NCBI GenBank assembly: GCA_963753035.1 | Contig: CAVWAW010000026.1 | Span: forward strand, 2,838 to 66,837 | Source of the DNA: an uncultured Acidobacteriota bacterium | Lineage (GTDB): Bacteria > Acidobacteriota > Thermoanaerobaculia > Thermoanaerobaculales > Sulfomarinibacteraceae | Length of the DNA stretch: 64,000 nucleotides | Direction: 5' to 3' | The notes under the pieces: model-generated | The model's database searches: none | The model's input: the letters and a program-made list of their open reading frames with translations, nothing else | What the model was told of the DNA's origin: nothing | Position numbers and translations under genes: made by a program | In this document: positions 1,321 through 46,285 of the stretch, in pieces | Layout: every line of letters starts with the position of its first letter | Position numbering within the stretch: the first letter of the stretch is position 1

Positions 1321-1361
1321 CGCCTCCAACGACCACCTCCCATCTCGAACGGGATCCAGAT

Positions 1362-5132: not shown

Positions 5133-5177
5133 GAAAGAGGCGACACACCGACGAATCTCGGCGAGGGCTCGACTACA

Positions 5178-6368: not shown

Positions 6369-6470
6369 GACTGGGATTAATCTACACGTTGAGCGTGCCC
6401 TACGCTGCCGGATTTGCTTGCCTCGGCGGGCCAATGGTCGGGGGATTCAGATTGACCGGTCTGGGTTTTC

Positions 6471-7486
6471 GTGATCATGTTGGCGGCAGCTCCATTTGTG
6501 TTTCTACTCGACAGGACACCGAGTCGATTTCCTGCCTGGATCTGGCTGCCGTGGATCACGATCGTCATTCTTAGCCTAATGTGGGAGACGGTTCTGTTCG
6601 CAAGAGCGTGCAAGATGTCAGTCAGATTCTGACGCCTTTTGTCATCGCGCCGATCGCGTCAAAGGCAATCAAATCCACCACGGACGTCGACGCCTTGTTG
6701 AGATCATTCACTCATTGCTTGTTGCTTCTCTTGACGGGGCTGACCCTCAACTCCGCAATCGGGGTTGGGATATTGGCCCGCCCAATGGCGATGACAGCTG
6801 CCGTCACCGGGTTGTTTTCGCTCAGATTCATCGGCGACGAACCTGGCCATCATCGGCTGGTGCGGTTGCCTCGTCGTTGCCGGCATGACCGAAGCCGCAT
6901 GGCCACGATCGCTATTCTCTTGGAGTGGCTGCTCCTGCCGACCTACCGTCGGCATGCGGCTCGAGTTCTCGCAGCAGGATTTATGGCTGCGCTTGCGGTT
7001 GCCCTCTTCCACACGCCGGTGTTTCAGGATCGCTTCTTTCCTGATGGGGAGGGAACACTGTCGGATGTTGCGAAGGCGAGTTTTCCGACACGGGTCGATT
7101 CGAGGTCTGGCGCGAGCTCTGGCCTGAGGTATCCCGCCGTCCGCTTCTTGGTGCAGGGGCCAGAGGATCGGCATCGCTTGTCAGACAGGCGTGGGATGGC
7201 TTGGACAAACCGCACAACGATTTTCTGACGAATTCTCCTCGAACAGGGCATCATCGGGTTTTCGCTGTTCATGCTTGGGGTCTGGGTTAGCTCATCAGTC
7301 TCTGGAAACAGCGATTCTCTCAACCGACCCTCGGGCCGTGTTTCGATCCGCGGCATACATGGGGATCATGGTGTTTCTCCTCATGGTGCGCTGACCGACA
7401 ACCCTATCGTCTACGGCGTCTGGTTTACGCACCCCTTGTTTGTGTTGATCGGAGCGTCTTACTCACAGGTGCAAGAGACCTCTTAG
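6471..7486 (+). CDS. O-antigen ligase / polymerase-like (Wzy_C family) membrane protein; frameshifted, 5' end uncertain
   Basis: Multiple hydrophobic segments are spread over three frames. KPHNDFL followed (after a shift) by ILLEQGIIGFSLFMLGVWV at 7205-7290 matches the HN-x-[FY]L motif of O-antigen ligase-like proteins. Confidence 0.5.
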
Positions 7487-8922
7487 CTTGCGCCCGATCC
7501 TCGGATAACCGCCGGAACTGTCTTCAACAGAATGTCAAAATCCAGGGACATCGACCAGTTGTCGATGTATTCGAGGTCCACCTCCATCCAATTTCGAAGT
7601 CGATCTTGTGGCGTCCGTTGATCTGCCAGAGACAGGTCAGTCCCGGTTTGACGCTGAAACGGCGAATCTGCCACTGGCTGTCAAATAGATCGACGTCCCT
7701 GGTCGGTAACGGGCGGGGGCCAACAAGACTCATCTCTCCCCGAGCCACGTTCAAGAACTGTGGCAACTCGTCAAGGCTGAACTTCCTGAGAATCCGGCCC
7801 ACCCGAGTGATCCTTGGGTCGTCCTTGATCTTGAAGGCCGCACCCTTGACTTCATTCCGATCTTCCAGGTCCCCGAGCCTCTCCTCGGCATCGATCTGCA
7901 TGGTCCTGAATTTGATCAATGGAAACCCGTGACGACCCAAACCGACACGCCGCTGAACAAAAAAGATTGGGCCTCGAGAGTCGATCTTGATCGCTGCGGC
8001 GATGACCGCAAAGAGTGGACTCAGCACCACGATGGCAAGAACCGAACCAACGAGATCGATGCTTCGTTTGAGAAGAGCACTCCAGCCAGGGGGGCCCGGC
8101 GCGCGCAGCGTCAATACCGGTGATGTCCTGAAACTCATCGACAAAAGCATTGATGAGTCGTGATTCGAAGAAATCAGCCGGCAGCCTGACAACCAGGCCC
8201 ATTTCCTGGCAGATTGTGATGAGATTCGAGATAGTCTCGTAGAACGACTTGATCGGCAAAGTGATGACGACCTCATCGACCTCCAGATCACCGAGAATCT
8301 CCCTCGCCTTGCTCGGATGGCCCAGGAGATTCTCGGCCTCTCCATGCAGAGGATTCGTCGGGGGGTCGATGTGGTCGATGTAGCCAAGCAGCATATATCC
8401 CAGTTCCGGCTTACTGCGGACCTCTTTTCCAAACGCGGTTCCGCGGGGTCCGCAGCCGACGATCACCAGGTTTCTGAGGTTCCGTCCATTGCGACGTGCC
8501 TCGCCGAGAATAACCCTAAGACAGGTTCGCACGGCGATGGTTCCTACCACCGCGGTTAAAAAAAACGTCAGCACAAACGCCCGATTTACGGCTGAGAGAC
8601 TCAGAATGGGAGCAAACCCGGAAAGCACCAGCGTTCCGATGGAAACCGCCTTGACGATGTCCCACCATTCGGCGGAGATGAGACCAATCCGTCTCGACCG
8701 ATAGAGGCCGAATAACCGGAAGAGAAGATGCCAGGCTATGGCAATGCCGACGACAAACGCAATGTTAACCAGTTTGATTCGCACCGCCAGGAATTGATCC
8801 AGGCTCCCGCCACTGGAAAGGTGACCGGAGACGATCAACCCAATGCCCACCGCGACAGCCATCACGATCAGATCGGCAGCACGAAGAGAATCGAGCAAAA
8901 ACCGACGTTTCAGGTCATTCAT
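7483..8922 (-). CDS. exopolysaccharide polyprenyl glycosylphosphotransferase (WbaP/bacterial sugar transferase family); 2 frame changes
   Basis: An N-terminal multi-TM region plus a Rossmann-like segment (LVIVGCGPRG). The C-terminal sugar transferase domain reads PIFFVQRRVGLGRHGFPLIKFRTM, KIKDDPRITRVGRILRKFSLDELPQ, MSLVGPRP, PGLTCLWQINGR. The tail ...EYIDNWSMSLDFDILLKTVPAVI is in ORF 7483-7674. Confidence 0.85.
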
Positions 8923-8938
8923 TCGCCACCTCCCCTCG

Positions 8939-9913
8939 TCACAGCCGCCGATAGATGAAGTCCGGAATATGAAATTTCCTGCGATTCAACACAGCGCCCA
9001 GGACTTCGACGCCCGAATCCTGCAACACACGTTGGCCTCTTCGGCGACTTCCTGTCTGGTCCGTTCCGCGCGAATAACCAACAGAGCACCCACTCGAGGC
9101 GGTTGCCAGGCTGGCCGATTCCGGATACGCCGTAACCGGAGGACCATCGATGATGACCCAGTCAAAAAGTGACGTCAGAGCCATCGCCACACCCTGCATT
9201 GCCGACATCGTCAGAAGCTGGGGGGGAGCTTGGTCGGTTTTCCCCGCAGTCAGGAGTGATAGTCCGGGTGCCACGTCAGGCCTCACCGCCGAGGTCAATG
9301 CAGCGCCACCCCTCAAAACATCGCTGAGACCTCTGGAGAGCTCAACTTGAAATGCCTGATGCTGACTGGGAGTCCGGACGTTGGAATCTACCAGAACAAC
9401 CTGCTCCCCCTGGGCGCGGCCCAAGGCAAGGGCCGTGTTTCTCGCAACCGTGCTGGCACCCTCCCCCGAAACGGCACCCGCAACCAGTATGACTCCTTGG
9501 CTCGGAGATCGACGAAACGTGACGAGTTTCTGGATGACCCTCTCATAGGCAGGATGAATGGACTGATCCATCAGCGTTAATTCTGCCGGTTCGGAAGTCT
9601 TCATCCACTCAGCATCGAAATCGTCAACCATTGTGTCAAGAAGCTCGTCTGCCAAGATCGGCTGTGCTGGCTCACCGGCCGTGTCTGTTGTCGGAACGCT
9701 CTCGTTGGCCTCCGCCTCCATCTTGCGGATCGCCGAAATCAGCTGTTCCTGCTGGATCGACTTTTCAGCAAGGTGCGGCCCGGGCTCGGCCATCCTGTTC
9801 GCGGCTCGCTCCATTGCGTCGTGGAACTTACTCACGTCTTCCCCCTGGACTATTTGCTGCGGCCCTCTCCGGTTCGATCGATCCCGAGGACTCATGGATT
9901 GAATCGAACTCAC
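8939..9913 (-). CDS. CpsD/CapB-type (BY-kinase-like) P-loop protein of polysaccharide co-polymerase systems
   Basis: VILVAGAVSGEGASTVARNTALAL (Walker-A-like), VVLVDSNVRTPS, DWVIIDGPPV (Walker-B-like), C-terminal ...VLGAVLN. The 5' end overlaps the upstream gene by ~86 nt, so the start is uncertain. There may be local compensating shifts near 9060-9110. Confidence 0.65.
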   Translation of the reverse strand: MSSIQSMSPRDRSNRRGPQQIVQGEDVSKFHDAMERAANRMAEPGPHLAEKSIQQEQLISAIRKMEAEANESVPTTDTAGEPAQPILADELLDTMVDDFDAEWMKTSEPAELTLMDQSIHPAYERVIQKLVTFRRSPSQGVILVAGAVSGEGASTVARNTALALGRAQGEQVVLVDSNVRTPSQHQAFQVELSRGLSDVLRGGAALTSAVRPDVAPGLSLLTAGKTDQAPPQLLTMSAMQGVAMALTSLFDWVIIDGPPVTAYPESASLATASSGCSVGYSRGTDQTGSRRRGQRVLQDSGVEVLGAVLNRRKFHIPDFIYRRL

Positions 9914-10829
9914 TGACGAGATAAGGTCCAGGCCTCATCGCCTGCTTGTCGACTCTTTGGACACAGAGCACATCCTGAACTGCCTCTTGTGCCGAGCATG
10001 CGTTGACATGGTCAAGCCCAATGGCAAAAGCATTGACCAGAGCGTGGTCGCAAAGAACGTTGATGGTCCGCGGGGAGCCCTTGGAGGCATTCCAGATGCA
10101 GTGCAGTGCCGCCTGGCTGAACAGCTCGGCGCCATTGGAACACCCCGCCTTCTCCAGACGAAAGACGATGTACTCGACGGTTTCTTCGAGCGAGAGCCGA
10201 TCGAGGCGCGCGTGGACGGCGATGCGTTGCCTGAGTTGACGCAAATCGGACCTCTGGAGGATTCTCTCCAGTTCGGGTTGGCCGGCCAGAAGGACCTGGA
10301 GCATCTTGCTCTTCGGATCTTCCAAATTGGTCAGAAGACGGACCTCCTCCAAGACATCCACTGTGAGATTCTGTGCCTCGTCGACGATCAGGAGGGGCGG
10401 CGGTTGATATGCCATGAACTCCCCATTGACGAAAGCGTAGAACTCGTTGATGAGATCTCCCCTTGAGAGACCATGCAGACGCGAGTCCGACATCAGTCCG
10501 GTTTCCGCTCGTTGACCGGCCGGCCGGCCAGGTCCGTAGGCCTCGAGCAGGTTGTTCAATATGAGTTTCAGCAACTCTTCTCGATCAATGGTGGTATGCC
10601 TGACATGGATCGTGCACGTCGAGCGATCGAGCGTTTCGATGAGAGCGTTAATGAGCGTTGTCTTGCCTGTGCCGACTTCGCCGACAAGGGTCATGAATCC
10701 CCTTCTTTGGCGAATACCGTAGGTCAGCGCGGCGAGCGCCTCGCGGTGAGCGGGGCTCTGATAGTAGAAATTCGGATCGGGTGTCATTCCGAATGGGTTT
10801 CCGCCGAGTCCAAAATATTTTTCGTACAT
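9828..10829 (-). CDS. ExeA-like AAA ATPase (general secretion protein A family, of the type found in EPS / PEP-CTERM-type loci)
   Basis: Intact ORF. YFGLGGNPFGMTPDPNFYYQSPAHREALAAL, Walker A GEVGTGKTT, Walker B LLIVDEAQNL. Confidence 0.85.
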   Translation of the reverse strand: MYEKYFGLGGNPFGMTPDPNFYYQSPAHREALAALTYGIRQRRGFMTLVGEVGTGKTTLINALIETLDRSTCTIHVRHTTIDREELLKLILNNLLEAYGPGRPAGQRAETGLMSDSRLHGLSRGDLINEFYAFVNGEFMAYQPPPLLIVDEAQNLTVDVLEEVRLLTNLEDPKSKMLQVLLAGQPELERILQRSDLRQLRQRIAVHARLDRLSLEETVEYIVFRLEKAGCSNGAELFSQAALHCIWNASKGSPRTINVLCDHALVNAFAIGLDHVNACSAQEAVQDVLCVQRVDKQAMRPGPYLVSEFDSIHESSGSIEPERAAANSPGGRRE

Positions 10830-10835
10830 CAGTTC

Positions 10836-12378
10836 TTATCCAAGCACTTCGCCGTCGGGGATCGATGCGATGTGCGGAATCCCCAACCGTTTTTCCAGGT
10901 CTTCTGCGGTGGTGAACGAGCGGTCAAAAAACACCTCCACGCCAAAGGCCAGACCCATGGCAGCCCAACAAACCGAAAGAAAACGGAGAGCACAAGCCGT
11001 TGCTCCAAGCCCTCTCGGTTCGGCACGAAGGGGCATCTGAGCCGGTTGGGCGACGGTGACATTGATGAACTTTTCCTGGTCCATAGCCGCCGAGAGTCGC
11101 GCTTCCTCGTGCTTTTTCCTGTACCTCAGGTAGTCCTCCTCGGCGGTTCGTGCGTTGCGCTGCAGGCTCTCGAGCGCAAACGCGTAGGCGTTGAGGGGAT
11201 CGAGCTGCTTCCTGTACTCCTCCACCTGTGAGTTCAACGATGCAACCTGAGCACGGGTTCCTTCGAGTGACGACCTCGGCGCGAAGGAGTTCGCCCTTGA
11301 GTTCCAGATAAACCGGATTGGCTTCGGTGCCACTGACCTTCGAGGTTTCCGTCGCGACTGCGCAGCCGCTCCTCCGCCAAACTTGATCTGCGAGTCGATG
11401 ATCTCGAACGTGGCGGCTGTCGGGTTTGAAATCCTGAAGAAGCCGGTCTCGCTCCGAGCTTGAGAGCCATCAGGGCACGCTCGATTTCGCTGGTCGTCGG
11501 ATCCTGATTCAGTTGACTCGAGCTCTCGAGACGCTCCGGCTCGTTTTGAAGCATCTCTCTGCAGCCGTTCCACCTGCCGGGTTTGGGATTCGAGGTCGAC
11601 TTCAGCGGTGCCGAGACTGCTTTCGAGACCGGAGAGACGCTCCATCACGAGGTGTTTCTGTGCCGCAAGCGAGTCCGAATCCAGCGGAGCCCTCGACCAA
11701 GGTGATCGAGGCGTTCTCCACGAAATCCTCCAGAGTCCTCTGCTGCTGTTTCATCCGAGGTCGGCCTCAGTCATCTGCTGTTCAAGAAGAACACGGCCTG
11801 GGGCGATTGGTACCGTTCGGCGCGTGTTTGAGATACTCATCGGTCAGCGTCTCAACCACCCGGGTGGCCCACACAGGATCCGTGGACACATAGCTCAACC
11901 GAGGACGTTGGATTTCTTGACCGCCGAAATTTCGAGGTTTCGCTGAAGATCCATCACGAGCTTGTCGAGTTTCGGCGACCGCACCACTGCACCATCGGAA
12001 GTTCCGGAGGCGGAGGCTTCTTGACCGGCGATGGGGACGAATCCAGCCCGAAGTCGTTACTCTCGATCAGGTGAGATGCGACGTTCTCGATCAGTTTTCG
12101 GCTCTTCAAGACCTCGATTTCCGAATTCAAATCTTCTTCGCTCACCCGATTGACGAAGAGCTGCGTCGATTCAGTCGGCGCGATCGGCATCTCAACCCGT
12201 GCTTCATTTACCAAAAGGGTCGCTTCGACCTTGTACATTCTTGGCGTCTGTCAAGGTCGAAACGACCACGACAGAAACAACGGCTAACAGAACCACCAGA
12301 ATCAACACGCGTCTCTTGAACACCGTCGTCAAGAGATCTCGCAACGAGTACGGGACGAAGATTCTCCTGCATCAACAT
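10836..12378 (-). CDS. polysaccharide chain-length determinant (GumC/Wzz family); frameshifted as sequenced
   Basis: N-terminus ...YSLRDLLTTVFKRRVLILVVLLAVV (TM) then MYKVEATLLV. A long coiled-coil-like middle is spread over ORFs 11234-11554 and 10836-11648. The C-terminal TM and tail read ...AAMGLAFGVEVFFDRSFTTAEDLEKRLGIPHIASIP. The start (12378 or 12372) is inferred. Confidence 0.65.
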
Positions 12379-12542
12379 GTTTGTTCGACGGCGTTGTCAT
12401 ACGTATTCCCTACCGCAACCGATCACCAGAGGAAAAGGAACAGCCGAAAACAAGCGAGCATGATGAAAAACCAGGCTTGAACTCCAGCCGTTTATTGCCG
12501 AATCAAGTCGTCCGAGCATGATCAATCCGAACTTCACCATAT

Positions 12543-13283
12543 CTACTGCCCCTGATAACCCGGCAGATACCACATCCAGGCCCCGAAACGTGGGAGGTTG
12601 TCGGATATGTACTGCTGCACGAAGATATTCACGTTGACGATCTTCTTGTGGTGGACATAGACAATATCCAGAGGTGCAAGCCGGAAGTCGTTCGCAATCT
12701 GGCCCTTCCTCAGAATCTGTTTGACATCGACGATGGTCCCCACGGGCTTGGAGTCGGGACCAGGCCTGATGAGCAATACCTCTTTTATCCGTGCTCTTTG
12801 GGTGAATCCGCCGGCATCCATGATGGCTTGGACGAGGGACATCCCACCTCGATAGTCCAGCATTCCGGGGCGGTTGACCTCTCCTCCTACATAGACCGAC
12901 AGGCCCGAAAACTCACTGACGCTGACCGTGATCTGGGGATTGACCATCTCTCGGCCGAAGCCATCCATCAACTCCGCAGTCACATCGTCGACCGTTCGGC
13001 CAACAACGTTGATCCGACCGACCAAAGGCAGGTGGATTGCTCCATCGGGTCCTACGGTGCTGGTCTGGCTGAAGTCGGTCGTTTTGTAGAAGTCGATCGC
13101 GAGAACGTCTCCGACATTGATCTTGTATGGGCCCGTGAGGATCGGTGGGAGATCTTGGGAGGGCACCATCAGGGGTTCTTGAGCTATGGCGTACGTGGTC
13201 ATGAGCATGGCCAGACAGGTCAGCAACACCAATACCAGAGTCGATGACAGACCCACCCCGCGAGATTGATCGCTGGTATTCAT
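12543..13283 (-). CDS. polysaccharide biosynthesis/export protein (Wza-like, Poly_export + SLBB domains)
   Basis: Intact ORF. Signal/TM LVLVLLTCLAMLMTTYAIA, then YKINVGDVLAIDFY, VGPDGAIHLPLVGRINVVGRTVDDV, VYVGGEVNRPG, SLVQAIMDAGGF. Confidence 0.85.
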   Translation of the reverse strand: MNTSDQSRGVGLSSTLVLVLLTCLAMLMTTYAIAQEPLMVPSQDLPPILTGPYKINVGDVLAIDFYKTTDFSQTSTVGPDGAIHLPLVGRINVVGRTVDDVTAELMDGFGREMVNPQITVSVSEFSGLSVYVGGEVNRPGMLDYRGGMSLVQAIMDAGGFTQRARIKEVLLIRPGPDSKPVGTIVDVKQILRKGQIANDFRLAPLDIVYVHHKKIVNVNIFVQQYISDNLPRFGAWMWYLPGYQGQ

Positions 13284-13732
13284 ACCTTCCCCCGTAATCT
13301 GCAATTGAGTATCAATTTTAAACAACTTGGAAGCCGCTCTTGCTCAACGGGTGGACACACCCAGTGGGCAACAGACACAGGAACCTGCGCTGGTGGGAAC
13401 ATAGGGCCGATTGGGTTCACCCAACCGTCTCTCATCCCGATATCAAAGGACTCATTCACGGCCATCTTCGCTTCTCCAGACACCCCTGTCGCCCGCCTTT
13501 GGGGCGACTTCCGGATCGCTTAAATTTTTCGGCCCTCCGAGGACCTTGCATTTTAGCACAAAATCCGTTTCCTGTCTGCGCCCACGCTCACGATTCTCGG
13601 TTCAACACCGCGAATTGACGTACACCGGCTCAGAGCGAGCAACTGAACAAGTGTTTGGATCCATGTAACATACTTATTCAACAGTGGTTTGATGATTGTC
13701 AGCCCCGGTGAGTCTCAACCGGTGTGAACACA

Positions 13733-13762
13733 GAAAAACGCCCGGCGTCACCGCCGGGCGTC
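13733..13762 (-). terminator. rho-independent terminator downstream of the secreted protein gene
   Basis: On the minus strand ACGCCCGGCG-GTGA-CGCCGGGCGT (10-bp GC stem) is followed by TTTTT. It lies 28 nt after the stop at 13790-13792. Confidence 0.75.
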
Positions 13763-13789
13763 TTTGTTTGGGGTTGATTCCGTTGTCGA

Positions 13790-15098
13790 CTATGGCTCGA
13801 CGGTACTCCAGCCACTGGTGTCGCCCGACTCGAAATCGTCGGTGAAGAGCGGGATGAGATTGGTCGCCGGCGCTTGGACGTAGACCGCCACAGCGGACGG
13901 ACCACCCGTTTTGAACATCCCGATACTCGCGAGAGCGTTCTCCGGCGGGCTGTCGGCATCGAAGCTGAAGTTGTACATGGTCGACCAACGCAGGGCGTTG
14001 GCGTTTTCGGGAGATCGGTCGGAAGTCGACCGACGACCAGCTCAGCAACCCGCTCGCCGTATCGACGTCAACGGCCCAATCGGTGAGGTCATAGGGCTCC
14101 CCCGAGTGGTAGTCGACATCGCGGAAACCGATGTTGGTGATCACCGAATCCGACCGAATCGGCACCGAGAAACTCCGGCCGCTGAGGTCGGAGTTGAGGT
14201 TGAAGACCGCATACTCGTAGTGCCAGGTCCCATCACCGTTGTCACCGACTTTGTAGCCGGCGACAAAGAGACCTTCGTTGGGAACCAGAACCTCGCGGAT
14301 GGTCACCGTGGGGTCGAGATCCTGCCACGCATAGATGGCCGGACGCCCCTCCTGGGTCGCTCCCGTCGTGTCGAGGTTCGTGCCGCTGACAAGCACCTCA
14401 CGGTAGGAGGCGTTGTTCATGCCGTTGTTCGGGCCGGTGTTGACGCCATCCGGCCAACCGGCGTCATCGGGGGCGATGTACTGACCCTCGACAAAATAGC
14501 TGTAGGTGGTCGGATCGCTGACGATCTCCGAAGGTCTTGACCTGAAGCCTTCCCCGGCACGGTCGGGTTTCCCGTCGGTTGAGGATGGGGATAGACGAAA
14601 TACCCGGTGAAGGCGTTCACATCCGAGCGCGGGCCGAGACGGTCATGGCTGCCGTTGAGGCTGGCAGAGTATGGGTCGGTGCATCCGACGCCGAGTTGCG
14701 AACCCGGGGGATTGCCCGGGCAGGTCCCGCACCCGGCGGTTCGTGAGATTGATGGAAACAAATCCGTTCTTCAACCACGACATCCCGAGCATCTCGATCT
14801 TGCCGTGCTCCGCCGGCGGATCGGCCAAGGTCACCCGATAGAGATTCTGGGCGATCACCGGATGCTGGTTGGTGTTCGAAATCCAAGCGAGGGGGGTGTC
14901 CCCTCGATTGCATGAAGTCGTCCCGACCGAGTAGGCGCGGACGGTCCCATCGGTCCCCCAGTTATAGGTACTCGGCAGTTCGAAGACCACGACATCCGGT
15001 CCCGATGGACCCTCAGGAACGTCGCCAGCCACCGGTCCCGCCGCCAAAACGGCCGCACAGATCATCACCGCCGCAAGCACCTTCGTCCGCCCGAGCAT
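13790..15098 (-). CDS. secreted protein of unknown function with C-terminal ...LFTDDFESGDTSGWSTVEP tag; frameshifted as sequenced
   Basis: Signal peptide MLGRTKVLAAVMICAAVLAAGPVAG. Pieces lie in ORFs 14643-15209, 14417-14761, 13674-14420 and 13790-13978 (e.g. GSQLGVGCTDPYSASLNG, GTWHYEYAVFNLNSDLSGRSFSVPI). I recognise no family. Confidence 0.6.
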
Positions 15099-17379: not shown

Positions 17380-17453
17380 CCATCGCAGGCGGGGACGCCT
17401 GCGCTACAAGGCAGTTCGCGTTCTTGTAGCGCCCGCGTCCCCGCGGGCGATGG
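17380..17453. repeat. REP pair (BIME-like single unit)
   Basis: CCATCGCAGGCGGGGACGCCTGCGCTACAA is followed by CTTGTAGCGCCCGCG-TCCC-CGCGGGCGATGG. The two-REP organisation in opposite orientation matches the tandem units at 47027-47479. Confidence 0.8.
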
Positions 17454-18560: not shown

Positions 18561-19568
18561 CTATTCGAGGGGTGCAGGTGATTGTTGAATGGATGTGAGT
18601 ATGGGAGAGTTCATCCCCCAGGCGGTCGAATCGACGACGATCACGGCGGGCGGGACCATCGGCGAGAAGGCGGCGCTCTCTTGAGCCTGTGCTTCCGGGC
18701 TCTCGACCACGACCTCGGCGATCACGATCGGCTCGAGTGTCTCGGGCGTCTCGATGTCATCCACCGCCTGCTGAACGGCCGCCGGCGCTTGCGGGGCCGG
18801 CCAGCCGAAGACGGAGCGGATGTCACTCAGTTTTGCCTGCACCGCCAGGGCGTTCTGCCGCCCCATTCTCAGGAGGTGCCGCTGCGCGTCGCTCATCCGC
18901 TCGAAGTCATCGTCGGCGAAGGCATAGGTCCGTGTTCGCTGCTCGACCTCGATGGCGCCCAGGGGAACCTCCACCTCGAGGAGGTGGTCGATGGCCTGCC
19001 GCAGACGATCCTCGAAGCTGCCCCGATGCCATGCGACATCCTGGCGCGCCTCTTCGATGGCAGGCTCGAGTTCCCTCAGGATGGCCACGGCGGCCGCCGC
19101 ATCAACCGAACCGAGCACCTCGACCGCCAGGTTGTAGCGGCGATAGGTCCCGGCCGCGATGACGAGCCGCCCCTCGTCCTCGCGAACGAGGAACGGGTGT
19201 TCAGTGGCGACAAAGCCGAGCTCACCGCTCGGGCTGTAGCCGTCCGCGACTGCCTCGACCGAAGCGACAAAACTCTCGATGAGGCCATCGGTGACCAGCC
19301 AGGACGCCCACTCGGGGTGGGCCGAGATCCGGCTCGCCACGGTCCGGATGAATTCGTCGCCCATCGGAGGCGCCGGCTCCTCGAAACTCGCCGGCACGAA
19401 AGCGGACGGCTCCTGAGGCGTCTTCTCAGCCTGAATCGGAGCCACCCTGATGGTGGGTCGGTCCTCGATCGTGCCGGTGATGCCGCCGGCGAACACGAGG
19501 AAGACGGTGGCGGCCGCAGTCACGATGGTGCCGCCGATGGTGGCAAATAAGCGATCGTCTCTGTTCAT
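18561..19568 (-). CDS. DUF3014 domain-containing membrane-anchored protein
   Basis: Intact 335-aa ORF with an N-terminal TM, then ...HPEWASWLVTDGLIESFVASVEAVADGYSP...YRRYNLAVEVLGSVD..., which is typical of DUF3014 proteins (recognised from memory). Confidence 0.65.
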   Translation of the reverse strand: MNRDDRLFATIGGTIVTAAATVFLVFAGGITGTIEDRPTIRVAPIQAEKTPQEPSAFVPASFEEPAPPMGDEFIRTVASRISAHPEWASWLVTDGLIESFVASVEAVADGYSPSGELGFVATEHPFLVREDEGRLVIAAGTYRRYNLAVEVLGSVDAAAAVAILRELEPAIEEARQDVAWHRGSFEDRLRQAIDHLLEVEVPLGAIEVEQRTRTYAFADDDFERMSDAQRHLLRMGRQNALAVQAKLSDIRSVFGWPAPQAPAAVQQAVDDIETPETLEPIVIAEVVVESPEAQAQESAAFSPMVPPAVIVVDSTAWGMNSPILTSIQQSPAPLE

Positions 19569-19682
19569 GATCGGCCTCCTTTTTCGATCCCACAGCCATG
19601 GTGCTGGACCGGCGCGGTGAGAAGAGGACCGAATTGAGGCTGATCGAGGGCGGACCGTGGCGGTGCTTGGGCACCGCCACGG

Positions 19683-19921
19683 AATTATGAATTTTGAATT
19701 ATGAATTTTGAATTTCGGACCCCGTGCTCGAGCGCCAAAGGACTGTCGTACGAGGTCAGACCTGCTCGAATACCTCTGAAGAGCAGGCTGTGAGTCCGCC
19801 CCTAAACTCCATCACATCATTGACATGCATCACGCGTGATCGTTTGCGATGGTGCGATGTCACAATTCATGAATCAATCATAATTCATAATTCATAATTC
19901 ATAATTGAGAATTCATAATTC
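19683..19921. repeat. heptad-armed inverted-repeat element, copy A
   Basis: The left arm TTATGAA/TTTTGAA x4 (19683-19715) and the inverted right arm TTCATAA x4-5 (19864-19921) flank a GC-rich core. The core is ~80% identical over ~100 nt to the core at 42300-42442. Confidence 0.85.
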
Positions 19922-19931
19922 TGCGCTGTGG

Positions 19932-20435
19932 TCAGTCAACGGTCCCGGGAGAGACGGTGTCGAGGGCGTCGGCTTGTGCGGCTTCGCCGCGGAGATCGAG
20001 CTGGCCGTGGCTTTCAAAGCTCATTCCGCGGACACTTCCCGAGGGCCGGACGACATAGACCTTGCCGGTCACGCCGTAGTTGAGGACCTTGGCTTCGATG
20101 ATCCCTTTGATTCGGGTGGCCAATGCCAGGTGGTTCATATGGAGCTCGACCCGTCGGACCACCGAACCGAGACGGGGCAACTCCAACCGCTCGTCACTCG
20201 CCCCTTTGCCCACCTTGATGCCGTTGAGTTCGAGTTTGATCACCGCACCATCGATGATGATGGGTTCGGGGTTGTCATTGGAGATCCGGACCGCCACGTC
20301 GAGGGTCGACTCGAAGAGCGTCGCGTCGACGATATCGAGATCAACCAGGGTCACACCCGGCGGCTCCATCGGTTCCGTCGTGACGCAGCCGGAAGCGGCG
20401 AAAGCTGCGATGACCAGCAGGAGGATCCCCTGCAT
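19932..20435 (-). CDS. LEA type-2 (NDR1/HIN1-like) family lipoprotein
   Basis: Lipobox MQGILLLVIAAFAASGC, then a beta-rich region VTLVDLDIVDATLFESTLDVAVRISNDNPEPIIIDGAVIKLELNG typical of LEA_2. The start is chosen at an internal ATG. Confidence 0.7.
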   Translation of the reverse strand: MQGILLLVIAAFAASGCVTTEPMEPPGVTLVDLDIVDATLFESTLDVAVRISNDNPEPIIIDGAVIKLELNGIKVGKGASDERLELPRLGSVVRRVELHMNHLALATRIKGIIEAKVLNYGVTGKVYVVRPSGSVRGMSFESHGQLDLRGEAAQADALDTVSPGTVD

Positions 20436-20538
20436 CGAGCCGGATCGGCAGTTCAACAACGCTCCACCATGGATCTTTGTCGAGTTTGACATCTCTCGAA
20501 GTGTAGCCCAGCCCGGTGTGCGCGTATAAAATATCGGC

Positions 20539-20721
20539 ATGGACGCAATTTTCATCATCGCGGCTGTCGTGGCCCTGACCGGGCTCGTCATCGCCGGGCG
20601 TTTTCTCTGGTCAGCCTGGTCGGACTTCCGTTTCCGCCGGCAGAAGCGAATGGAAGAGGACCGGCGTCAGACCAACCTGCCCGTCCCCATGGAGAGACGC
20701 AAGCGGGACAGGCGTCAGTAA
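20539..20721 (+). CDS. small hypothetical membrane protein (60 aa)
   Basis: One TM (IFIIAAVVALTGLVIAG) followed by an Arg/Lys-rich tail. There is no homology evidence, only the ORF and its position upstream of the KAS-III gene. Confidence 0.35.
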   Translation: MDAIFIIAAVVALTGLVIAGRFLWSAWSDFRFRRQKRMEEDRRQTNLPVPMERRKRDRRQ

Positions 20722-20810
20722 CCCGCACCTGCCGCTGGTGTTAAGATGCCACTCCGGATCTGCACCTGGAACCCGGGCGTTCACAGGTGCGTATATTTAT
20801 GGGGGGCGAT

Positions 20811-21827
20811 ATGAAATTCGACAACGTACAGATCCTGAGCGTAGCGCACATCGACGCGCCGCACGCTGAGCGTTCCGATGAAATCGAGTCGAGACTCGAA
20901 GCCACCATGAAGCGACTGGGCGTCCCGCCGGGAATGCTCGAGAGATTTTCGGGGATCAAGAGCCGCCGCCAATTCGATGAGGAGATGCCGCCGAGCGAAG
21001 CGGCCGCCAAGGCCGGCGAGCGCGCCATCGAGAAAGCGGAAATCGACCGGGCACAGCTCGGAATCGTGGTCAACACCTCGGTCTGCCGTGATTTTGTCGA
21101 ACCATCGACCGCCTCCATCGTGCACCGCAGCCTCGGCCTCTCGCCGAACTGCCTCAACTTCGACATCTCCAACGCATGCCTCGCCTTTATCAACGGCATG
21201 GAGATGGTGAGCAACATGATCGAGCGGAAGCAGATCGAATACGGCATCGTGGTCAACGCCGAGAACACAAAACACGCCACCAGGAGCACGATCGAGCGGC
21301 TGAGTCGGCCCGACGCCACGATGGAGGCATTTCGCGATGCGTTTGCAACCCTGACCCTCGGGTCCGGAGCGGTGGCGATGGTCCTCGCCCGCGCCCAGGG
21401 CAAACCCGGCGAGCACCGATTCCTCGGTGGTGTCAACCTCTCGGCGACCGAGCACTGCCGGTTGTGCTACGCCTCGGTCGACAACATGGTCACCAACGCC
21501 AAGAAACTCCTCACCCACGGTTTGGAACTCGCATTCAAGACCTGGTCGCGGGCGCGGGAGGTTCTCGCATGGACCCCGGACAATATCGACCACTTCATCA
21601 TCCACCAGGTCGGCAAAGCCCACACCGAACGCTTCGCCCGGACCCTCGGCATCGATCTTCAGAAGATCTTCCGTCTCTATCCGAACCACGGCAACATCGG
21701 GCCCGCCGGTGTTCCCATCGTTCTGTCGAAACTCATCGAAGAAGGAAAACTCAACGCCGGCGATCGAATCGCGCTCATGGGAATCGGCAGCGGCATCAAC
21801 TGCACCATGTCCGAGATCGTCTGGTAG
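20811..21827 (+). CDS. 3-oxoacyl-ACP synthase III (KAS III / FabH-like) family protein
   Basis: Intact. Active-site Cys context DISNACLAFINGM, His in FIIHQVGKAH, Asn in YPNHGNIGPAGVPI, thiolase-fold length (~338 aa). Confidence 0.85.
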   Translation: MKFDNVQILSVAHIDAPHAERSDEIESRLEATMKRLGVPPGMLERFSGIKSRRQFDEEMPPSEAAAKAGERAIEKAEIDRAQLGIVVNTSVCRDFVEPSTASIVHRSLGLSPNCLNFDISNACLAFINGMEMVSNMIERKQIEYGIVVNAENTKHATRSTIERLSRPDATMEAFRDAFATLTLGSGAVAMVLARAQGKPGEHRFLGGVNLSATEHCRLCYASVDNMVTNAKKLLTHGLELAFKTWSRAREVLAWTPDNIDHFIIHQVGKAHTERFARTLGIDLQKIFRLYPNHGNIGPAGVPIVLSKLIEEGKLNAGDRIALMGIGSGINCTMSEIVW

Positions 21828-21886
21828 TTGACACTGGTCCGGTGAAGGGGCAAAGTTCCACATCTTGACACGGTAGCGGAGGCACC

Positions 21887-22359
21887 ATGGCTCTCAAGGT
21901 AGATTTTTCAAAGATGGACGGTCGGGACGCGCTCGACATTGCCATCGTCATCGAAGACGAAGCCCAGCTCGCGTATGAACACCTGGCGGACTGGGTCGGG
22001 AGCGATGGAAACACCGAAGCTGCGGACTTCTTCAAACGAATGGCGGTGCGCGAGAAGCGCCACAAGGAGGAGATCACCGAGCGCCGTGCCGAGCTCTTTG
22101 GAGATGTCCCCGCCCGCCACGACGAGGCCGCCCCATGGGAGGCGGAAGTGCCGGACTATGAGTCCCTCGGCCGCAATGTGAGCCTCGAGGACGCGTTCAA
22201 CGTCGCCATGGGCGCCGAAACCAGGGCCCACGATTTCTACGCCGAGGCCATCGACTACATCGAGGCCGAGGAAGTCGTCGAACTCTTCGACTGGTTGGGA
22301 AAGCCGAGATCGAGCACCAGCGGATGTTGGCCGAGGAGATGAAGCGGCATCTGGGTTAG
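21887..22359 (+). CDS. ferritin-like / rubrerythrin-family protein; last ~12 codons in another frame
   Basis: Two E-x-x-H type helices (VIEDEAQLAYEHL, AMGAETRAHDFY). The terminal ...KAEIEHQRMLAEEMKRHLG* is read after a shift near 22300. The stop TAG is at 22357-22359. Confidence 0.7.
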
Positions 22360-22434
22360 AGGTTAGGAGTAAGAGAGTTAGGGGCGAGGGTCGCACGTCC
22401 GACGTCTGACTCACTCCTCACTCCTCAGTTTAGG
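22354..22434. repeat. heptad-armed inverted-repeat element, copy F (short)
   Basis: GGTTAGA GGTTAGG AGTAAGA GAGTTAG, then core CGAGGGTCGCACGTCCGACGTCTGAC, then TCACTCC TCACTCC TCA (imperfect inverted arms). The rubrerythrin-like stop is the first TAG. Confidence 0.7.
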
Positions 22435-22484
22435 CATAGGGGTCGGAGGATTGCCATGGGAGCCCTAGGATAGACTCTGAGGCC

Positions 22485-22865
22485 ATGGCGATCATGGATC
22501 CCGCCCTGCTTCCCGCCGATCGGAATCATCTCGATCCCGAAGATCGCAATCAACTGTTGCGTTTCGAACTTCTGCTTGTTCAGGGTCGTTTCGATCAGGC
22601 CCAGGAAGTTGTCGAAGACCTCTGGATCGAGGCCACCGATGCGCACAGGGAACTTTACAGGGGGCTGTCCAACGCCGTGACAGCCGTTTGCGCGAGCGAA
22701 GCACAAAAGCACAGGGGCGCCGGCGAGATCGCGCACCAAAGCCGCGTCATCCTGGCCCCATTTCCCCGCCGAGTACTCGGAATCGACATCGACGCGCTCC
22801 TCGACTCCGTGAGTGACCATGTGGAACGAGGAGAGGGTCCGATCCTACTTCTACGTCAAGGATGA
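22485..22865 (+). CDS. DUF309 domain-containing protein
   Basis: LLVQGRFDQAQEVVEDLWIEA...ELYRGLSNAVTAV fits the DUF309 helical pattern (F-x-EAHE-x-LE-x-x-W ... QGLIQ). The antisense ORF 22425-22820 is judged spurious. Confidence 0.6.
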   Translation: MAIMDPALLPADRNHLDPEDRNQLLRFELLLVQGRFDQAQEVVEDLWIEATDAHRELYRGLSNAVTAVCASEAQKHRGAGEIAHQSRVILAPFPRRVLGIDIDALLDSVSDHVERGEGPILLLRQG

Positions 22866-22982
22866 GGCTTTTCCTTGGTGGTATTCTGGTTTTGTAGACA
22901 GACCCGCGGATAATTCACCGGTCTGTACGATGGTTTCTGAAACGATTGATCGGAGGTTTGCGGACGCTGTGAGCGGGGTATT

Positions 22983-23807
22983 GTGACCGATCTGAGTTTC
23001 TGTTCCGTCGCTGATCGCCGAATGGCGTACCGTCGCTCGGGCCAGGGCGAAACCGTGCTTCTGGTCCACGGGATCACGACCAACTCCTTCGTCTGGGAAG
23101 AGCTCGTCCCACGGCTGACCGAGAGCTTCGATGTGATCTCCATCGATCTTCAGGGCTGCGGTGGTTCCGATCTCGGTCTCGATGCGGACTACTCCATCGC
23201 CGCCCAGGCCGAATCGACCGCGGAGTTCATCCGCACCCTCGACATCGGCCCATGCCATCTGGTCGGGCACGACATCGGCGGTGGGATCGCCCAGATTCTG
23301 GCTGTCCGTCACCGTGACCTCCTCCGGTCGCTGACCCTCATCAACCCGGTGGGATACGATTTCTGGCCGGTCCAACCCATCATCGCCATGCGGACGCCTA
23401 TCCTGCGCCAGCTGGTCATGGCCACCCTCGATTTCGGCATGCTCCGGTTGGTCGTCAAGCGCGCCCTCTATCACCGCGAACTTCTCGATGACGATCTCAT
23501 GGCCTGCTTCTGGGACCAGATGAACACCGGCGAGCGGCGCAAGGCCTTTCTCAAGCTCGCCCGCTCGCTCAACAACGAACAGCTTCTGGAAATCGAAGAC
23601 GAGTTGAGCGATCTGGATCTTCCCACCCTCATTCTTCGGGGAGACGCCGATATCTACCTGAGCGCGAAGATCTGCGAACGACTGCGGGAAGACATCGCGG
23701 GCAGCCGACTCGAACGGATCGACACCGGTGGGCATTTTCTCCAACTTGATGAGCCGGACTGGGTCGCCGATCACCTCCTCGGCTTCTGGCCGGAGAGTTC
23801 CCGGTGA
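22983..23807 (+). CDS. alpha/beta-fold hydrolase
   Basis: Intact. TVLLVHGITTNSFVWEE, nucleophile elbow LVGHDIGGGIAQ, C-terminal ...IDTGGHFLQLDEPDWV. Confidence 0.85.
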   Translation: MTDLSFCSVADRRMAYRRSGQGETVLLVHGITTNSFVWEELVPRLTESFDVISIDLQGCGGSDLGLDADYSIAAQAESTAEFIRTLDIGPCHLVGHDIGGGIAQILAVRHRDLLRSLTLINPVGYDFWPVQPIIAMRTPILRQLVMATLDFGMLRLVVKRALYHRELLDDDLMACFWDQMNTGERRKAFLKLARSLNNEQLLEIEDELSDLDLPTLILRGDADIYLSAKICERLREDIAGSRLERIDTGGHFLQLDEPDWVADHLLGFWPESSR

Positions 23808-25980
23808 ACCGGAAGGACCGATCGGAGAAGCTCTCTCCTGACGAGCAGATCCGGCTTCTCGAGGCCGAGAACGACATCCTCAACGAACGCGCCGAGGATG
23901 TCCTCCTTCTCGGACTGGTCGCCGAGAACCATCACCCCGCTTCGAGATATCGACGCCATTGTCGAGACTCTCTTGGAGAGAGTCGGGATCCTCTACGAGA
24001 TCCCCTATTGCGGGTTCGCTCGAATCGACGGCCCGTCACCGGTTTTCCATCAGGAGTTCGTTCCCCATGTGAGCACAGTGGAGGGATCGTTTTTACGTCT
24101 GGCGCCGAATGCGATGGCGGTTCTCGCCGAGGGCGCGATCGTCTGTTCCGCCGAGGATGCCGCCCACGAGGGCGTCGAACTCGGGCTCCGTGACGTCGAA
24201 CCCAACCAGATCCTGCTCATCCCCTGCGCCTGCAGATCCCAACTCCGCGGTGTTTTCATTTTTGCCCACGACACGTTGGACTCGTCCGTTCTCGTCCGCA
24301 AGCTCATCGTCTTACAACAGGTGACCGGTTTGGCAACCGCGAGGATGGACAATATCCATCTTCTCGACGAACTCACACTCCTCAACGTGGACCTCGAAAC
24401 CCGGGTGAAAGAACCGCACGGCGGAGCTCCATCGGGCCGCGCGGGCTCTCGAAATCGAGATTTCCGAGCGCCGCCGAGCCGAAGAGATCGTCGCTGGCGA
24501 ACGGCACCGCCTGAGAACCGTGGTGGAACACCTTCCAGAAGGCGTGATCGTCCTTGATGCCGAAAACCGCGTGGTCCTGGCAAACCACGCTACTTCGGTC
24601 GCCCAACCGCTCATGGGCCCCATCGAAAACGGTGACGAGCTTGGATCCATCGGGGGCCGCCCATTGGCGGATTTCGAATCTGACGCCAGCGAAGCGCGGT
24701 GGCTGGAGGTCTCTTCCGACTCCGCACCCTCCTCGATCTTCGAGGTGGCGGTCCGCAGGCTTGGAAGCCATCACAAGGGTTCGGTTGTCGTGCTGCGCGA
24801 CATCTCCGAACAGCGGAAAGTTGCGGACCAGCTTCTGAGACAGGAGCGAATCGCCGCCATGGGACATCTCGCCGCCGGGATCGCCCACGATTTCAACAAC
24901 CTGATCCAGGCCATCACGATTCTGGCCGAGAGCCTGCTGCTCGACGAATCCGGCGATCATTCATCCAGAAAACACAAGACCCGCGAGATCCTCGCAGTCA
25001 GCGAACGGGCGGCGACGCTGATTCGGCAGATTCTCGACTACTCGAGACAGACCGCGACCAGCCCGCAGATCATCGATCTTCGTACATTTCTCGTCGAAAC
25101 CCTGACCATGCTTGATCGGCTGATACCCGAGACGGTCCGCATCGAGATCGATGCGGCGCCCGGAGAACACACGATCCGTTTCGACCCCGTCCAGCTCCAA
25201 CAGATCCTGACCAACCTCACCGTCAATTCCAGCCAGGCCATGCCGAACGGCGGCGAGATCAGGGTTCGACTATGGAATCCGAGCGCAACTCGGATCGGAC
25301 CCGGCTCGATTGGCGGATCCGAAGGACGGGACTGGGTCTGTCTGAGCCTCACGGACACCGGTTGCGGGATTCCACCAGAGGCCCGGCCGCATATCTTCGA
25401 GCCGTTCTTCACCACCAAGGAACGCGGTCAGGGCACCGGTCTCGGTCTCGCTCAGACCTACGGCATCATCCGGCAGAACCACGGGCGAATCACCTTCGAG
25501 ACCAACGTCGGTCAGGGGACGACCTTCACCCTGTACCTTCCCGTCGAACACGAAGATGCGGAGATTTCCGAACCGATAACCGAGATCCCCCCAACTCCCC
25601 ACGGAAATCGGGAAACGATTCTGGTGGTCGAGGACGACCCCACGGTTCGGGAGCTCACCGGCGAGCTCGTCGAGGCCCTCGGCTATCGACCCCTCATCGC
25701 CCGCAACGGGATCGAGGCGTTGGAGGTGATGGCGACCACTGAGGAGGAGATCCGCCTGGTGCTCTCCGATGTCGCCATGCCGACCATGGGGGGTGTGGAA
25801 CTCGCGGTCGAGCTGGGGCGGCGCAACCCTTCGGTCCCGGTCGTGCTCATGAGCGGCTATGCACCGGATCCCATGGGCGGCGGGTTTTCGAGCCCCAATC
25901 TCGCCGCATGGCTCCAGAAGCCCTTTTCGGTCGATGCTCTCGCCACCACCCTGGCGGAGATCCTGTCGAAGAGTTCTTAG
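23804..25980 (+). CDS. hybrid sensor histidine kinase (GAF-PAS-HisKA-HATPase_c-REC); 2 frame changes in the 5' third
   Basis: The GTG start overlaps the hydrolase stop (GTGA). The GAF-like region is in ORF 23898-24557. ORF 24520-25980 has the H-box AAGIAHDFNNLIQ, N-box LTNLTVNSSQAM, G-boxes DTGCGI / GTGLGLA and the receiver ILVVEDD...VLSDVAMPTMGG...KPF. Confidence 0.85.
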
Positions 25981-26147
25981 TTCTTAGTTCTTAGTTTTTA
26001 ATTACATCGCATCCGGTCTTCGTCGCTCTGACCGGCACAGGCGACGAACGCACCATTGGGGACCCTGTTTTCATCACCGGTAACCAGCAACCTCTCCAGG
26101 TCGATGTGATGGAACTAAGAACTCAAAACTCAAAACTGAGAACTTTT
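25974..26147. repeat. heptad-armed inverted-repeat element, copy C
   Basis: The left arm TTCTTAG x3 + TTTTTAA (stops at 25978, 25985, 25992, 25999) includes the kinase stop codon. The core begins ACATCGCA and ends GATGTGATGG. The right arm is AACTAAGAACTCAAAACTCAAAACTGAGAAC. Confidence 0.8.
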
Positions 26148-26167
26148 CATTTTGCTAAGCTCTCAAC

Positions 26168-26909
26168 GTGAGTTCAACGACGTTATCTATCGTCCTTCTC
26201 TTTCTTTTGAATCTCGCACCCGTCGTGGTCGGCCGGCGCCGCCGATATCCAGACCATCACCCACGGACGCGAGGTCGAGATCGAGGAGCACCTGGTCCCC
26301 GGAAAATACGTTCTCTTTGATTTCTATGCCGATTGGTGCGGACCGTGCCGCGCCCTCGAACCACAGATCCGCGAGCTCGCGGGTCGATATGGCGACCAAC
26401 TCGCGGTTCGGAAAATCGACATCATCAACTGGGACAGCGCGGTGAGTCGTCAGTTCCGCATGTCCTCGATCCCGTACATGATTCTCTATGGTCCCGACGG
26501 AGAATCGATCACCGCCGGTGACGCCGGTTCGGTCATGCACCGGCTCCGTTCGGCCCTCGGCTCGCCGAGCGGCCGACCGGCGTCCGAAGACGGCGGTTTT
26601 GCCCCGGTCCCGGTGCTCGCGACGGCCGCGATCCTCGCCGCTGCGGTGGCGCTGGTTGTTCGACGACGCCGTCGGGAACCGGTTGGGTCGATGCGGGCCG
26701 CCTCGGTCACGAACCTTCCGCCGGTCGACACCGCCGCCGATCCCGGCGATCCCGCGATCTGGTTTGCGGTCCTTCAGGGGAGCATCGACGGTCCCTTCAC
26801 CCGCCGACAGCTCGGCGAACTCGTCCAACGACGTCTCTTGGATGCCTCCTCCACCGTCCGCCGCCGGGGAGATGCTTCCTGGACCGAAGTCAGCAATGTC
26901 CTCGACTGA
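26168..26909 (+). CDS. thioredoxin-domain protein with C-terminal TM segment and GYF_2-like domain; 1 frame change near 26235
   Basis: GTG 26168 opens signal-like SSTTLSIVLLFLLNLAPVVV. After the shift comes YVLFDFYADWCGPCRAL...IPYMILYGPDG (WCGPC thioredoxin). Then a TM (VLATAAILAAAVALVV) and ...IWFAVLQGSIDGPFTRRQLGELV (GYF_2/DUF4339-like). Confidence 0.75.
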
Positions 26910-28227: not shown

Positions 28228-28380
28228 TTGAAACCGCCAAGGCGCAATGGTCGCCAAGGCTCCGCGAAGTTCACTATTGACCCATCGCAGAATGCGATGG
28301 AGGTCTTGAGTCGGAAAGGGTTCGGGTCAAATGATGATCTCTGCGGATTCTTGGCGTGTTTCGCGTCTTGGCGGTTTCAA
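28228..28380. repeat. long imperfect inverted repeat with CCATCGCAG-AA-TGCGATGG hairpin core (copy G)
   Basis: The outer 14 bp TTGAAACCGCCAAG (28228-28241) are perfectly complementary to CTTGGCGGTTTCAA (28367-28380). The CGCCAAG / CTTGGCG sub-repeats occur twice per arm. The core hairpin is at 28282-28300. Confidence 0.8.
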
Positions 28381-46153: not shown

Positions 46154-46285
46154 GGACGCCTCTTTCGGATTGCGGTACCGAACCCGTTTCCTTCCACGAT
46201 GTACCCGTGCGGTGCCAGGCAGCTCTACCACGCGATTTCGAGGATGAGAGGACGAGGCGCGTCCCAGAATAGTGTAAGAGACCCT

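Follow-up and report, generated by a model that had tools for sequence, protein, structure and literature searches.

Results

Copy A and its neighbors

The stretch of DNA analyzed here (the window) comprises 64,000 nucleotides (nt) of contig CAVWAW010000026.1 from an uncultured Acidobacteriota bacterium, and its subject is an intergenic inverted repeat at 19682-19921, copy A, together with the repeat family to which it belongs. Copy A lies between a DUF3014 gene and a LEA_2 gene (19932-20591, minus strand; Pfam match). The stop codon of the LEA_2 gene is 10 nt beyond the right arm of copy A, and the left arm faces the 5′ end of the DUF3014 gene at a distance of 113 nt. A GC-rich hairpin in between (CGTGGCGGTGC-TTGG-GCACCGCCACG, 19656-19681) sits directly outside the left arm and is conserved in L047, L003, and L010 (L-numbers denote the related loci that we compared with the window).

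Both arms are AT-rich and have a period of 7 nt. The left arm (GAATTATGAATTTTGAATTATGAATTTTGAATT, 19682-19714) contains five AATT cores, one every 7 nt, which in the T-rich reading form GAATTWTG units, with TGA at 19688, 19695, 19702, and 19709; it has no CATCGCA box, and its inner junction is TTCGGACC. It is followed by a dispersed module of ~150 nt, the A-type core (19715-19844), and by a tandem pair of boxes on the plus strand, TGCGATG-G-TGCGATG (19845-19859), so that the central part terminates in TGCGATGGTGCGATGT at 19845-19860. The right arm (19860-19921), in the A-rich reading, is irregular and expanded to about nine units instead of the usual five; its 19878-19921 portion is built of TCATAAT units, with TAA at 19881, 19888, 19895, and 19902. 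The original prediction, made from the sequence of the window, had described an inverted repeat with 7-nt-periodic arms, this end of the core, these stop codons, and the 10-nt distance from the LEA_2 stop, all of which we found as described.

The two arms are 91% complementary across 33 nt. Tandem Repeats Finder detects period-7 arrays at both of them and at four further sites in the window, and 7 is the only period between 4 and 12 for which such runs occur. AATTNANAAYTNANAAYT is found 13 times versus 0.00 expected from shuffles, and TGCGATG 31 times versus 13.7 ± 3.8. The whole of copy A has a predicted fold of -89.4 kcal/mol, with z = -7.8 for the plus strand and -4.6 for the minus strand relative to shuffled versions. 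As detailed below, copy A belongs to a lineage-specific palindromic intergenic family, of which it is an atypical member with a long core and an expanded right arm. Since the same architecture is found again in independent metagenome-assembled genomes (MAGs) and in Joint Genome Institute metagenome contigs, the AT-rich arms are not an assembly artefact, a possibility that had been raised initially.

A five-unit arm defines the family

A genome scan, with one genome per species and the pattern TGCGATGNAATTMAAAAYTMAKAAYT, returned 53 loci, and an independent second scan of metagenome contigs, in which only one AATT per side was demanded, returned 52 loci, mostly of 56-66% GC. When all TGCGATG/CATCGCA sites of the window are aligned, TGCGATG-N-AATT is seen at the inner start of most arms, and the genome-set loci together with the window yield the arm pattern TGCGATG-N-(AATT-N-A-N)4-AATT. 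There are exactly five AATT-like cores in 94 of 117 genome-set arms (the 1-nt offset from GCGATG being present in 98), in 72 of 95 metagenome arms, and in 174 of 224 arms that were detected without reference to the box. Among the 99 arms overlapping no search pattern, 70 have five cores and 55 (56%) have GCGATG. The five-unit rule is therefore robust, and the TGCGATG box is common but not universal.

The units, of 12-25% GC, consist of AATT (or AACT) and a spacer N-A-N, whose middle base is A in 454 of 456 cases. At the first spacer position the order of frequency is C > A > G > T, and at the third T, A, or G occurs. Unlike a variable microsatellite, the arm has a sequence pattern of fixed length. 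The proposal that the period and an embedded stop codon are conserved, and not the sequence, does not hold as worded, since the seemingly different heptads are all AATT or AACT plus N-A-N, usually in five units and usually with TGCGATG.

The standard element is a dyad of ~100 nt: (N-T-N-AATT)×5, N, CATCGCA, a loop, TGCGATG, N, and (AATT-N-A-N)×5. Its loop measures 17-33 nt overall, most commonly 19 nt, and is unconserved in sequence. In the genome set, loops are 18-23 or 28-33 nt long; in the metagenome set, exactly 19 nt is the most frequent length, and 22 and 31 nt form smaller groups. The loops of short elements share nothing except a weak central dyad, TCC-N-GGA, which is unable to pair in a hairpin tip, and they fold no better than shuffles. 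In copy A and in a second window copy (42268-42474), the ~150-nt A-type core replaces the short loop, the left CATCGCA is missing, and there are two tandem right boxes. This core, found in at least eight other related loci, is a shared internal sequence, which the window elements at 25972 and 49290 and 22 short elements, with their unrelated loops, do not have. The arms of the window copies are 84-94% complementary, and across the whole family arms are complementary only as patterns. Tandem runs of TGCGATG, with 3 to 8 copies at periods of 7 to 9 nt, occur directly upstream of single arms in L035 (2236-2330 and 5640-5720), L011 (11-48), and L023.

Copies come almost only from Acidobacteriota MAGs and from metagenome contigs of ~60% GC. 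Apart from an "uncultured bacterium" bin and a Methylomirabilota MAG, all MAGs in the genome scan bear the label of Acidobacteriota or of a class or order within it (Thermoanaerobaculales, Holophagae). Several scan loci share synteny with the window, their nucleotide identity being 75-94%, which places the window in this clade. Neither the arm scan of viral contigs nor BLAST against plasmids gave a match. Rfam has no match to the whole window at gathering thresholds, nor to 19640-19960 at E ≤ 1, and the arm strings were not found in the searchable literature. The family is real and appears to be undescribed, in line with the initial impression that it matches no described class of elements.

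Orthologous copies and position-specific constraint

An element is present in all 29 syntenic comparisons, in most of them at nearly equal length. In orthologous arm pairs, substitutions fall very unevenly: 0/105 in the TGCGATG box, 10/300 in the AATT core, and 0/60 at spacer position 2 (the A), versus 16/60 at spacer position 1 and 21/60 at position 3. The two free spacer positions have therefore changed in ~30% of comparisons, in pairs whose flanks are 76-94% identical, and the AATT changes in the pairs that we inspected are switches between AATT and AACT. The zero for the box is partly due to ascertainment, because both partners had to be recognizable arms. The window, which was not selected by pattern, retains every box found in its relatives, both TGCGATG and the single variant form (TGTGATG at 26105).

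In L047 and L010, the same two genes enclose the core of copy A in the orientation opposite to that in the window. In L003, only the DUF3014-side arm and box are kept, followed by a different dispersed repeat that replaces the core and the right arm. Since all three relatives have a box on the DUF3014 side, the flip occurred in the window's lineage, and recombination between the inverted arms is its likely cause.

These comparisons bear on whether the elements are selfish. It had been suggested that they are a family resembling MITEs (MITE, miniature inverted-repeat transposable element) that inserts at, or creates, gene termini. In its fuller form, this explanation has a MITE or a transposable doublet of repetitive extragenic palindromic (REP) sequences (REPIN) whose 40-bp heptad arms serve as terminal inverted repeats for a transposase encoded elsewhere, the location at gene ends reflecting targets that are tolerated or that are AT-rich and contain stops. 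Like MITEs and foldback transposons, the elements have terminal inverted repeats around a short noncoding core, and the arms of foldback elements also consist of tandem short repeats. The A-type core with its arms is indeed dispersed (two window copies and at least 11 more in related loci), and it is tandemly duplicated at the polA copy in L018. Arms lie within a decayed UDP-glucose dehydrogenase gene in L033, the foreign repeat in L003 has replaced core and right arm, and hairpins of the GTAG REP type are joined to TGCGATG in the window itself.

However, neither the window copies nor 22 short elements with sharp boundaries have visible target-site duplications, and the 29 syntenic comparisons, a sample biased toward repeat-carrying loci, contain no empty orthologous site. 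No transposase is found between arms in ~740 kb of loci, no autonomous partner or insertion polymorphism was found, and neither viral contigs nor plasmids contain a match. Most cores are unique, the loops of short elements being unrelated, and individual copies display position-specific constraint, whereas neutral decay would not spare the box, the AATT, and the middle A while neighboring positions differ in ~30% of comparisons. As neither target-site duplication nor polymorphism was found, the elements cannot be classed as MITEs, and the behavior of a dispersed repeat is confined to the long-core A-type subfamily. Divergence between A-type cores is similar for paralogs (77% identity) and orthologs (73-83%), so there has been no recent activity. 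We consider a selfish origin of this kind unlikely.

Pairing versus sequence pattern

An equally unlikely alternative is that the elements act as RNA, as hairpins in 3′ untranslated or intercistronic regions in which CAUCGCA/UGCGAUG closes a long imperfect stem that either keeps 3′ exonucleases off the upstream mRNA or provides phased sites for an RNase or an RNA-binding protein. Their position directly after stop codons and within operons would suit such a role, as would folding z-scores of -7.8, -4.6, and -3.3 and the single arms of L033, which all lie on the sense strand. In Xanthomonas, moreover, transcripts start or stop at analogous heptamer arrays more than at controls (PMC4692102).

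The arms nevertheless do not evolve as the two sides of a stem. Between the two arms of 22 short elements, free spacer positions match in 43-45% of cases versus 38-39% with shuffled partners (p ~0.14), i.e., they are complementary no more than by chance. The AACT core variant tends to sit in both arms of one element, without position-by-position matching, and constrained positions never switch to other complementary pairs. Since the arms are unmatched where they are free to vary and are never re-paired where they are constrained, it is the sequence pattern of each arm that is preserved, not the stem. There is no pairing-specific covariation in the arms; one hairpin in the A-type core shows compensatory changes, and covariation is otherwise weak (-0.62 kcal/mol). 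The long loops, mostly of 19 nt and of narrow size classes, fold no better than shuffles, no U tract lies beyond the stem, and Rfam gives no match even at E = 1. Strong hairpins (-15 kcal/mol or below) occur outside 16% of arms versus 4%, a minority only, with no overall shift. Together, the fixed number of units, the narrow classes of loop size, and the unmatched free positions indicate a factor that reads sequence.

Gene ends, stop codons, and transcription signals

Arms are enriched at gene 3′ ends. In a strict test, which uses codon-position criteria, a stop codon lies within -28 to +20 nt of the arm edge in 97 of 198 arms, versus 2.3% of random positions. In a lenient test, an incoming long open reading frame (ORF) stops near the arm edge in 142 of 200 arms, and in 82 of these 142 gene-abutting arms the stop of the gene lies in or overlaps the arm. 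An arm-supplied stop is thus used by ~58% (lenient) or 46% (strict) of abutting genes, stop positions having peaks at -1, where T joins the AA of the outermost AATT, and at +5/+6, where the first heptad supplies TGA or TAA. Among 58 short elements, both arms are at 3′ ends in 15 (strict) to 32 (lenient), and neither arm is in 3 (lenient) to 11 (strict); elements often fill the entire spacer between convergent genes. The original prediction had noted gene 3′ ends abutting the arms of the window and had called for their distances to be compared with chance. The association is borne out and extended by these counts, copy A itself being an exception on one side, as its left arm faces the 5′ end of the DUF3014 gene. 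Some arms precede a start codon or ribosome-binding site by 0-40 nt, which means that transcripts must cross them and that some elements are inside operons.

It had also been proposed that the arms are selected to end translation in all three frames at gene ends of a GC-rich genome, and the inward-reading strand does block all three frames in 109 of 200 arms versus 30% for the same pattern with uniform spacers, with the gene stops falling in or over the arms as described. However, all-frame blocking is equally common in gene-abutting arms (78/142, 55%) and in the others (31/58, 53%). Beside genes, the stop-less spacer base G is not depleted (14% vs. 10%), and the stop-giving T is the rarest base. 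Constraint falls on AATT, the middle A, and TGCGATG, with none visible on the base that decides the stop. The GGGAATC arrays of Xanthomonas adjoin stop codons yet hold none (our own reading of the motif in PMC4692102), which argues that stops are not the point. Since stops follow automatically from the conserved T-N-AATT, the ladder is a by-product, and selection for it as such is very improbable.

The accompanying suggestion of a bidirectional terminator fares no better. Either strand reads T-rich arm, stem, and A-rich arm, without a U tract after the stem, which is the reverse of what an intrinsic terminator needs, so the polarity is wrong; a terminator scan of 19400-26400 found no terminator-like site at the elements. 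A stretch of 7 kb has just three sigma-70-like promoter matches (TTCAAA-17-CATAAT), all facing outward from within or next to the arms of copy A. We treated them as an effect of composition, since AT richness and spacers that alternate at 14 nt account for them; most arms also point into gene 3′ ends. Overall, the picture of a real repeat family that is tied to gene 3′ ends and often provides the stop stands, and the defining criterion and the two mechanisms first proposed for it are only partly right.

Other elements in the window and in related loci

Five sister elements had been listed for the window. Three of them (at 25972, 42267, and 49290) have true inverted arms, whereas the one at 56066 has arms in the same orientation and the one at 22354 has unrelated heptads and no detectable inverted repeat. 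The element at 25972-26144 is of the AACT flavor, with an arm at 25972-26003, CATCGCA at 26005-26011, a unique 93-nt core, the variant box TGTGATG at 26105-26111, and a second arm at 26113-26144; the TAG stop of a histidine-kinase gene falls in its first heptad. The second A-type copy (42268-42474) begins 3 nt past the polA stop and consists of an arm (42268-42299), the core (42300-42426), TGCGATGGTGCGATG (42427-42441), and a five-unit arm (42443-42474), in an orientation identical to that in L053, L005, and L018. The cleanest standard copy in the window is the short canonical element at 49290-49402, in which an arm is followed by CATCGCA (49330-49336), a 26-nt loop, TGCGATG (49363-49369), and a five-unit arm (49371-49402). 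It fills the entire spacer between two convergent genes, both of which stop inside an arm. At 56066-56155, two same-orientation arms each end in CATCGCA (56092-56098 and 56149-56155), without an inverted partner, and an upstream ORF of 666 amino acids stops inside the first arm. The module at 22354-22427 is a mosaic of other heptads (GGTTAGR, CTCACTC) without AATT arms or a detectable inverted repeat. It is homologous to a mosaic module that adjoins a canonical arm in L019; L010 lacks it, and in L003 it is deleted.

Apparent single-base frameshifts relative to L003 and L010 lie near the 3′ ends of polA (42067-42264 vs. 39593-42190) and of the rubrerythrin gene (22300-22360), which suggests indel errors in the assembly, possibly from long reads.

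Other repeats accompany the family in the window. A 96-bp tandem array at 47026-47479 (4.7 copies, 94% identity) has as its unit a GTAG-type REP-like hairpin, GTAGCGCCGGCGTCCCGCCGGCG, joined to CATCGCA/TGCGATG, and single related copies are found at 63541-63572 and 17381-17438, so TGCGATG also borders nonheptad repeats. A different dispersed intergenic family of ~280 nt occurs in at least 12 loci, including the window (46286-46564, 46705-46967, and 63146-63483) and L003 (827-1284). The 1.4-kb spacer at 46273-47650 is a repeat mosaic that includes a fragment of the A-type core at ~46630-46665. A lone box palindrome, CCATCGCA-GAA-TGCGATGG, lies at 28275-28300 between two plus-strand genes, without heptad arms. 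Positions 1-14000 have a GC content of 53-59% versus 60-69% elsewhere, mostly short ORFs, and no heptad arms, and may be a different genomic island.

In L033, positions 1700-8000 form a same-strand toxin-antitoxin island of ribbon-helix-helix (RHH)+PIN, RHH+ParE, and Phd+ParE cassettes and a 23S-IVP/Avd-like gene. Between the cassettes lie single arms of one orientation with TGCGATG and AATT, as well as CTAACCC-type heptads, and arms also interrupt the decayed UDP-glucose dehydrogenase gene. A recurrent GCTACAAT/TACAAT motif in the flanks of arms, 7 nt upstream of ATG (L030 2794-2823, L076, L041, L012, and L038), suggests that this clade has leaderless mRNAs whose -10 box is TACAAT.

Discussion

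Our working hypothesis is that the elements are conserved cis elements, comparable to REP sequences and to the bacterial interspersed mosaic elements (BIMEs) that contain them, and that they are read by a putative sequence-specific trans factor, probably on DNA. We put the probability of this reading at about 0.5, and its main rivals are the selfish and the RNA-level explanations considered above. A trans-acting factor that recognizes the arm pattern would most likely be a small oligomeric DNA-binding protein coating the five phased boxes of each arm on duplex DNA, much as the RHH proteins omega and MetJ coat 7-bp heptads and tandem boxes, respectively. Where transcription units end, such a nucleoprotein complex could be a roadblock, a topological barrier, or a determinant of mRNA ends, and the stop-codon ladder that comes with T-N-AATT would have been co-opted by neighboring genes. 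The family would have spread by past duplication, as illustrated by the A-type subfamily, its present copies being old and fixed, and arm-arm recombination would have flipped copy A in the window's lineage. A more specific version, to which we attach clearly less confidence, is that the elements are protein assembly sites, with polymerization on five phased AATT boxes per arm anchored by TGCGATG, at what we extrapolate to be hundreds of gene ends per genome. Such sites might insulate or terminate transcription units or organize the chromosome, and would have been co-opted as the stops of many neighboring genes.

Several points weigh against a cis element of this kind. All of the at least 13 single arms in the L033 toxin-antitoxin island are on the sense strand, which fits an RNA-level or promoter-related role equally well, and whole elements fold significantly better than shuffles, as the z-scores given above indicate. 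The loci were fetched by patterns with the box and one to three AATT cores, so the absence of substitutions in the box is in part a product of how the loci were chosen, only 56% of unselected arms having the box. The orthologous pairs overlap phylogenetically, and their counts are therefore not independent. Finally, the appearance of site-specific constraint could also arise from gene conversion, given hundreds of copies.

The closest described precedent is the GGGAATC heptameric arrays of Xanthomonas, in genomes of ~65% GC, which have a preferred number of four units and 70-75 inverted pairs per genome, lie within 50 bp of or overlap a stop codon, are conserved in position and type between species, show no association with insertion sequences, and have no known function (Rehm et al. 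2015, PLoS One, PMC4692102). The present family shares with them tandem 7-nt units, a preferred unit number (four there, five here), inverted pairs, proximity to stop codons, and conservation between species. In contrast to ours, the units in Xanthomonas are rich in G, have the potential to form G-quadruplexes, and lack stop codons; neither an inner box resembling TGCGATG nor a fixed loop has been reported for them, and the phylum is different. Our units have only AATT-N-A-N in common and, at 12-25% GC, offer no G-tracts for quadruplexes.

In terms of function, the best analogy is with REP, BIME, and REPIN sequences of Proteobacteria, which bind host proteins and stabilize upstream mRNA. Like these, the elements are short extragenic palindromes at 3′ ends or between cotranscribed genes and not in divergent promoter regions, present in high copy number, forming mosaics, and long retained at orthologous sites. 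However, REPs are GC-rich hairpins of 20-40 nt with a GTAG or CGTC head, a description that does not apply to the AT-rich, heptad-phased arms, whose length is 32 nt and whose complementarity is poor at one-third of positions. True GTAG REPs are separate from heptad arms in the window (47026-47479 and 63541-63572).

The heptad phasing itself has a counterpart in RHH systems such as omega of pSM19035 and the metboxes of MetJ, in which tandem 7-bp (or 8-bp) boxes, direct or inverted, are bound cooperatively by small dimers that wrap the duplex. To our knowledge, RHH heptad arrays are the only well-studied case of 7-bp phasing on DNA. They lie at a few promoters on plasmids or in regulons, not at hundreds of gene ends, and their box, WATCACW, differs from the AATT boxes. 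Cyanobacterial short tandemly repeated repetitive (STRR) heptamers and the TAACTGA repeats of Beggiatoaceae are likewise lineage-restricted intergenic heptanucleotide tandems without known function, in 2-6 copies per set (MacGregor 2015, PMC4679880). Unlike the present family, they are mostly direct repeats just upstream of starts, with one inverted case in 170 sets, a variable copy number, and no flanking box (PMC4679880). Integron attC sites, Xer/dif sites, and IS200/IS605 ends were considered and dropped, since their conserved boxes do not match.

We know of no chromosomal family of heptanucleotide arrays with a known function. According to Mrazek (2007), as cited in PMC4679880 and PMC4692102, no class of long simple repeats is more over-represented in bacteria than such arrays. 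The fixed unit number, the common flanking box, the narrow loop classes, and the split between constrained and free positions at orthologous sites provide a precise consensus for the family described here, and all four features argue against the usual explanation by slippage only. The family also demonstrates that housekeeping genes can routinely obtain stop codons and C-terminal residues from a repeat. Should there be a binding factor, it would define a new cis/trans system where transcription units end, in a phylum that has been little studied, and it may also explain the parallel arrays of Xanthomonas. Were the elements indeed sites of protein assembly, they would represent an unrecognized bacterial system for insulating or terminating transcription units or for organizing the chromosome.

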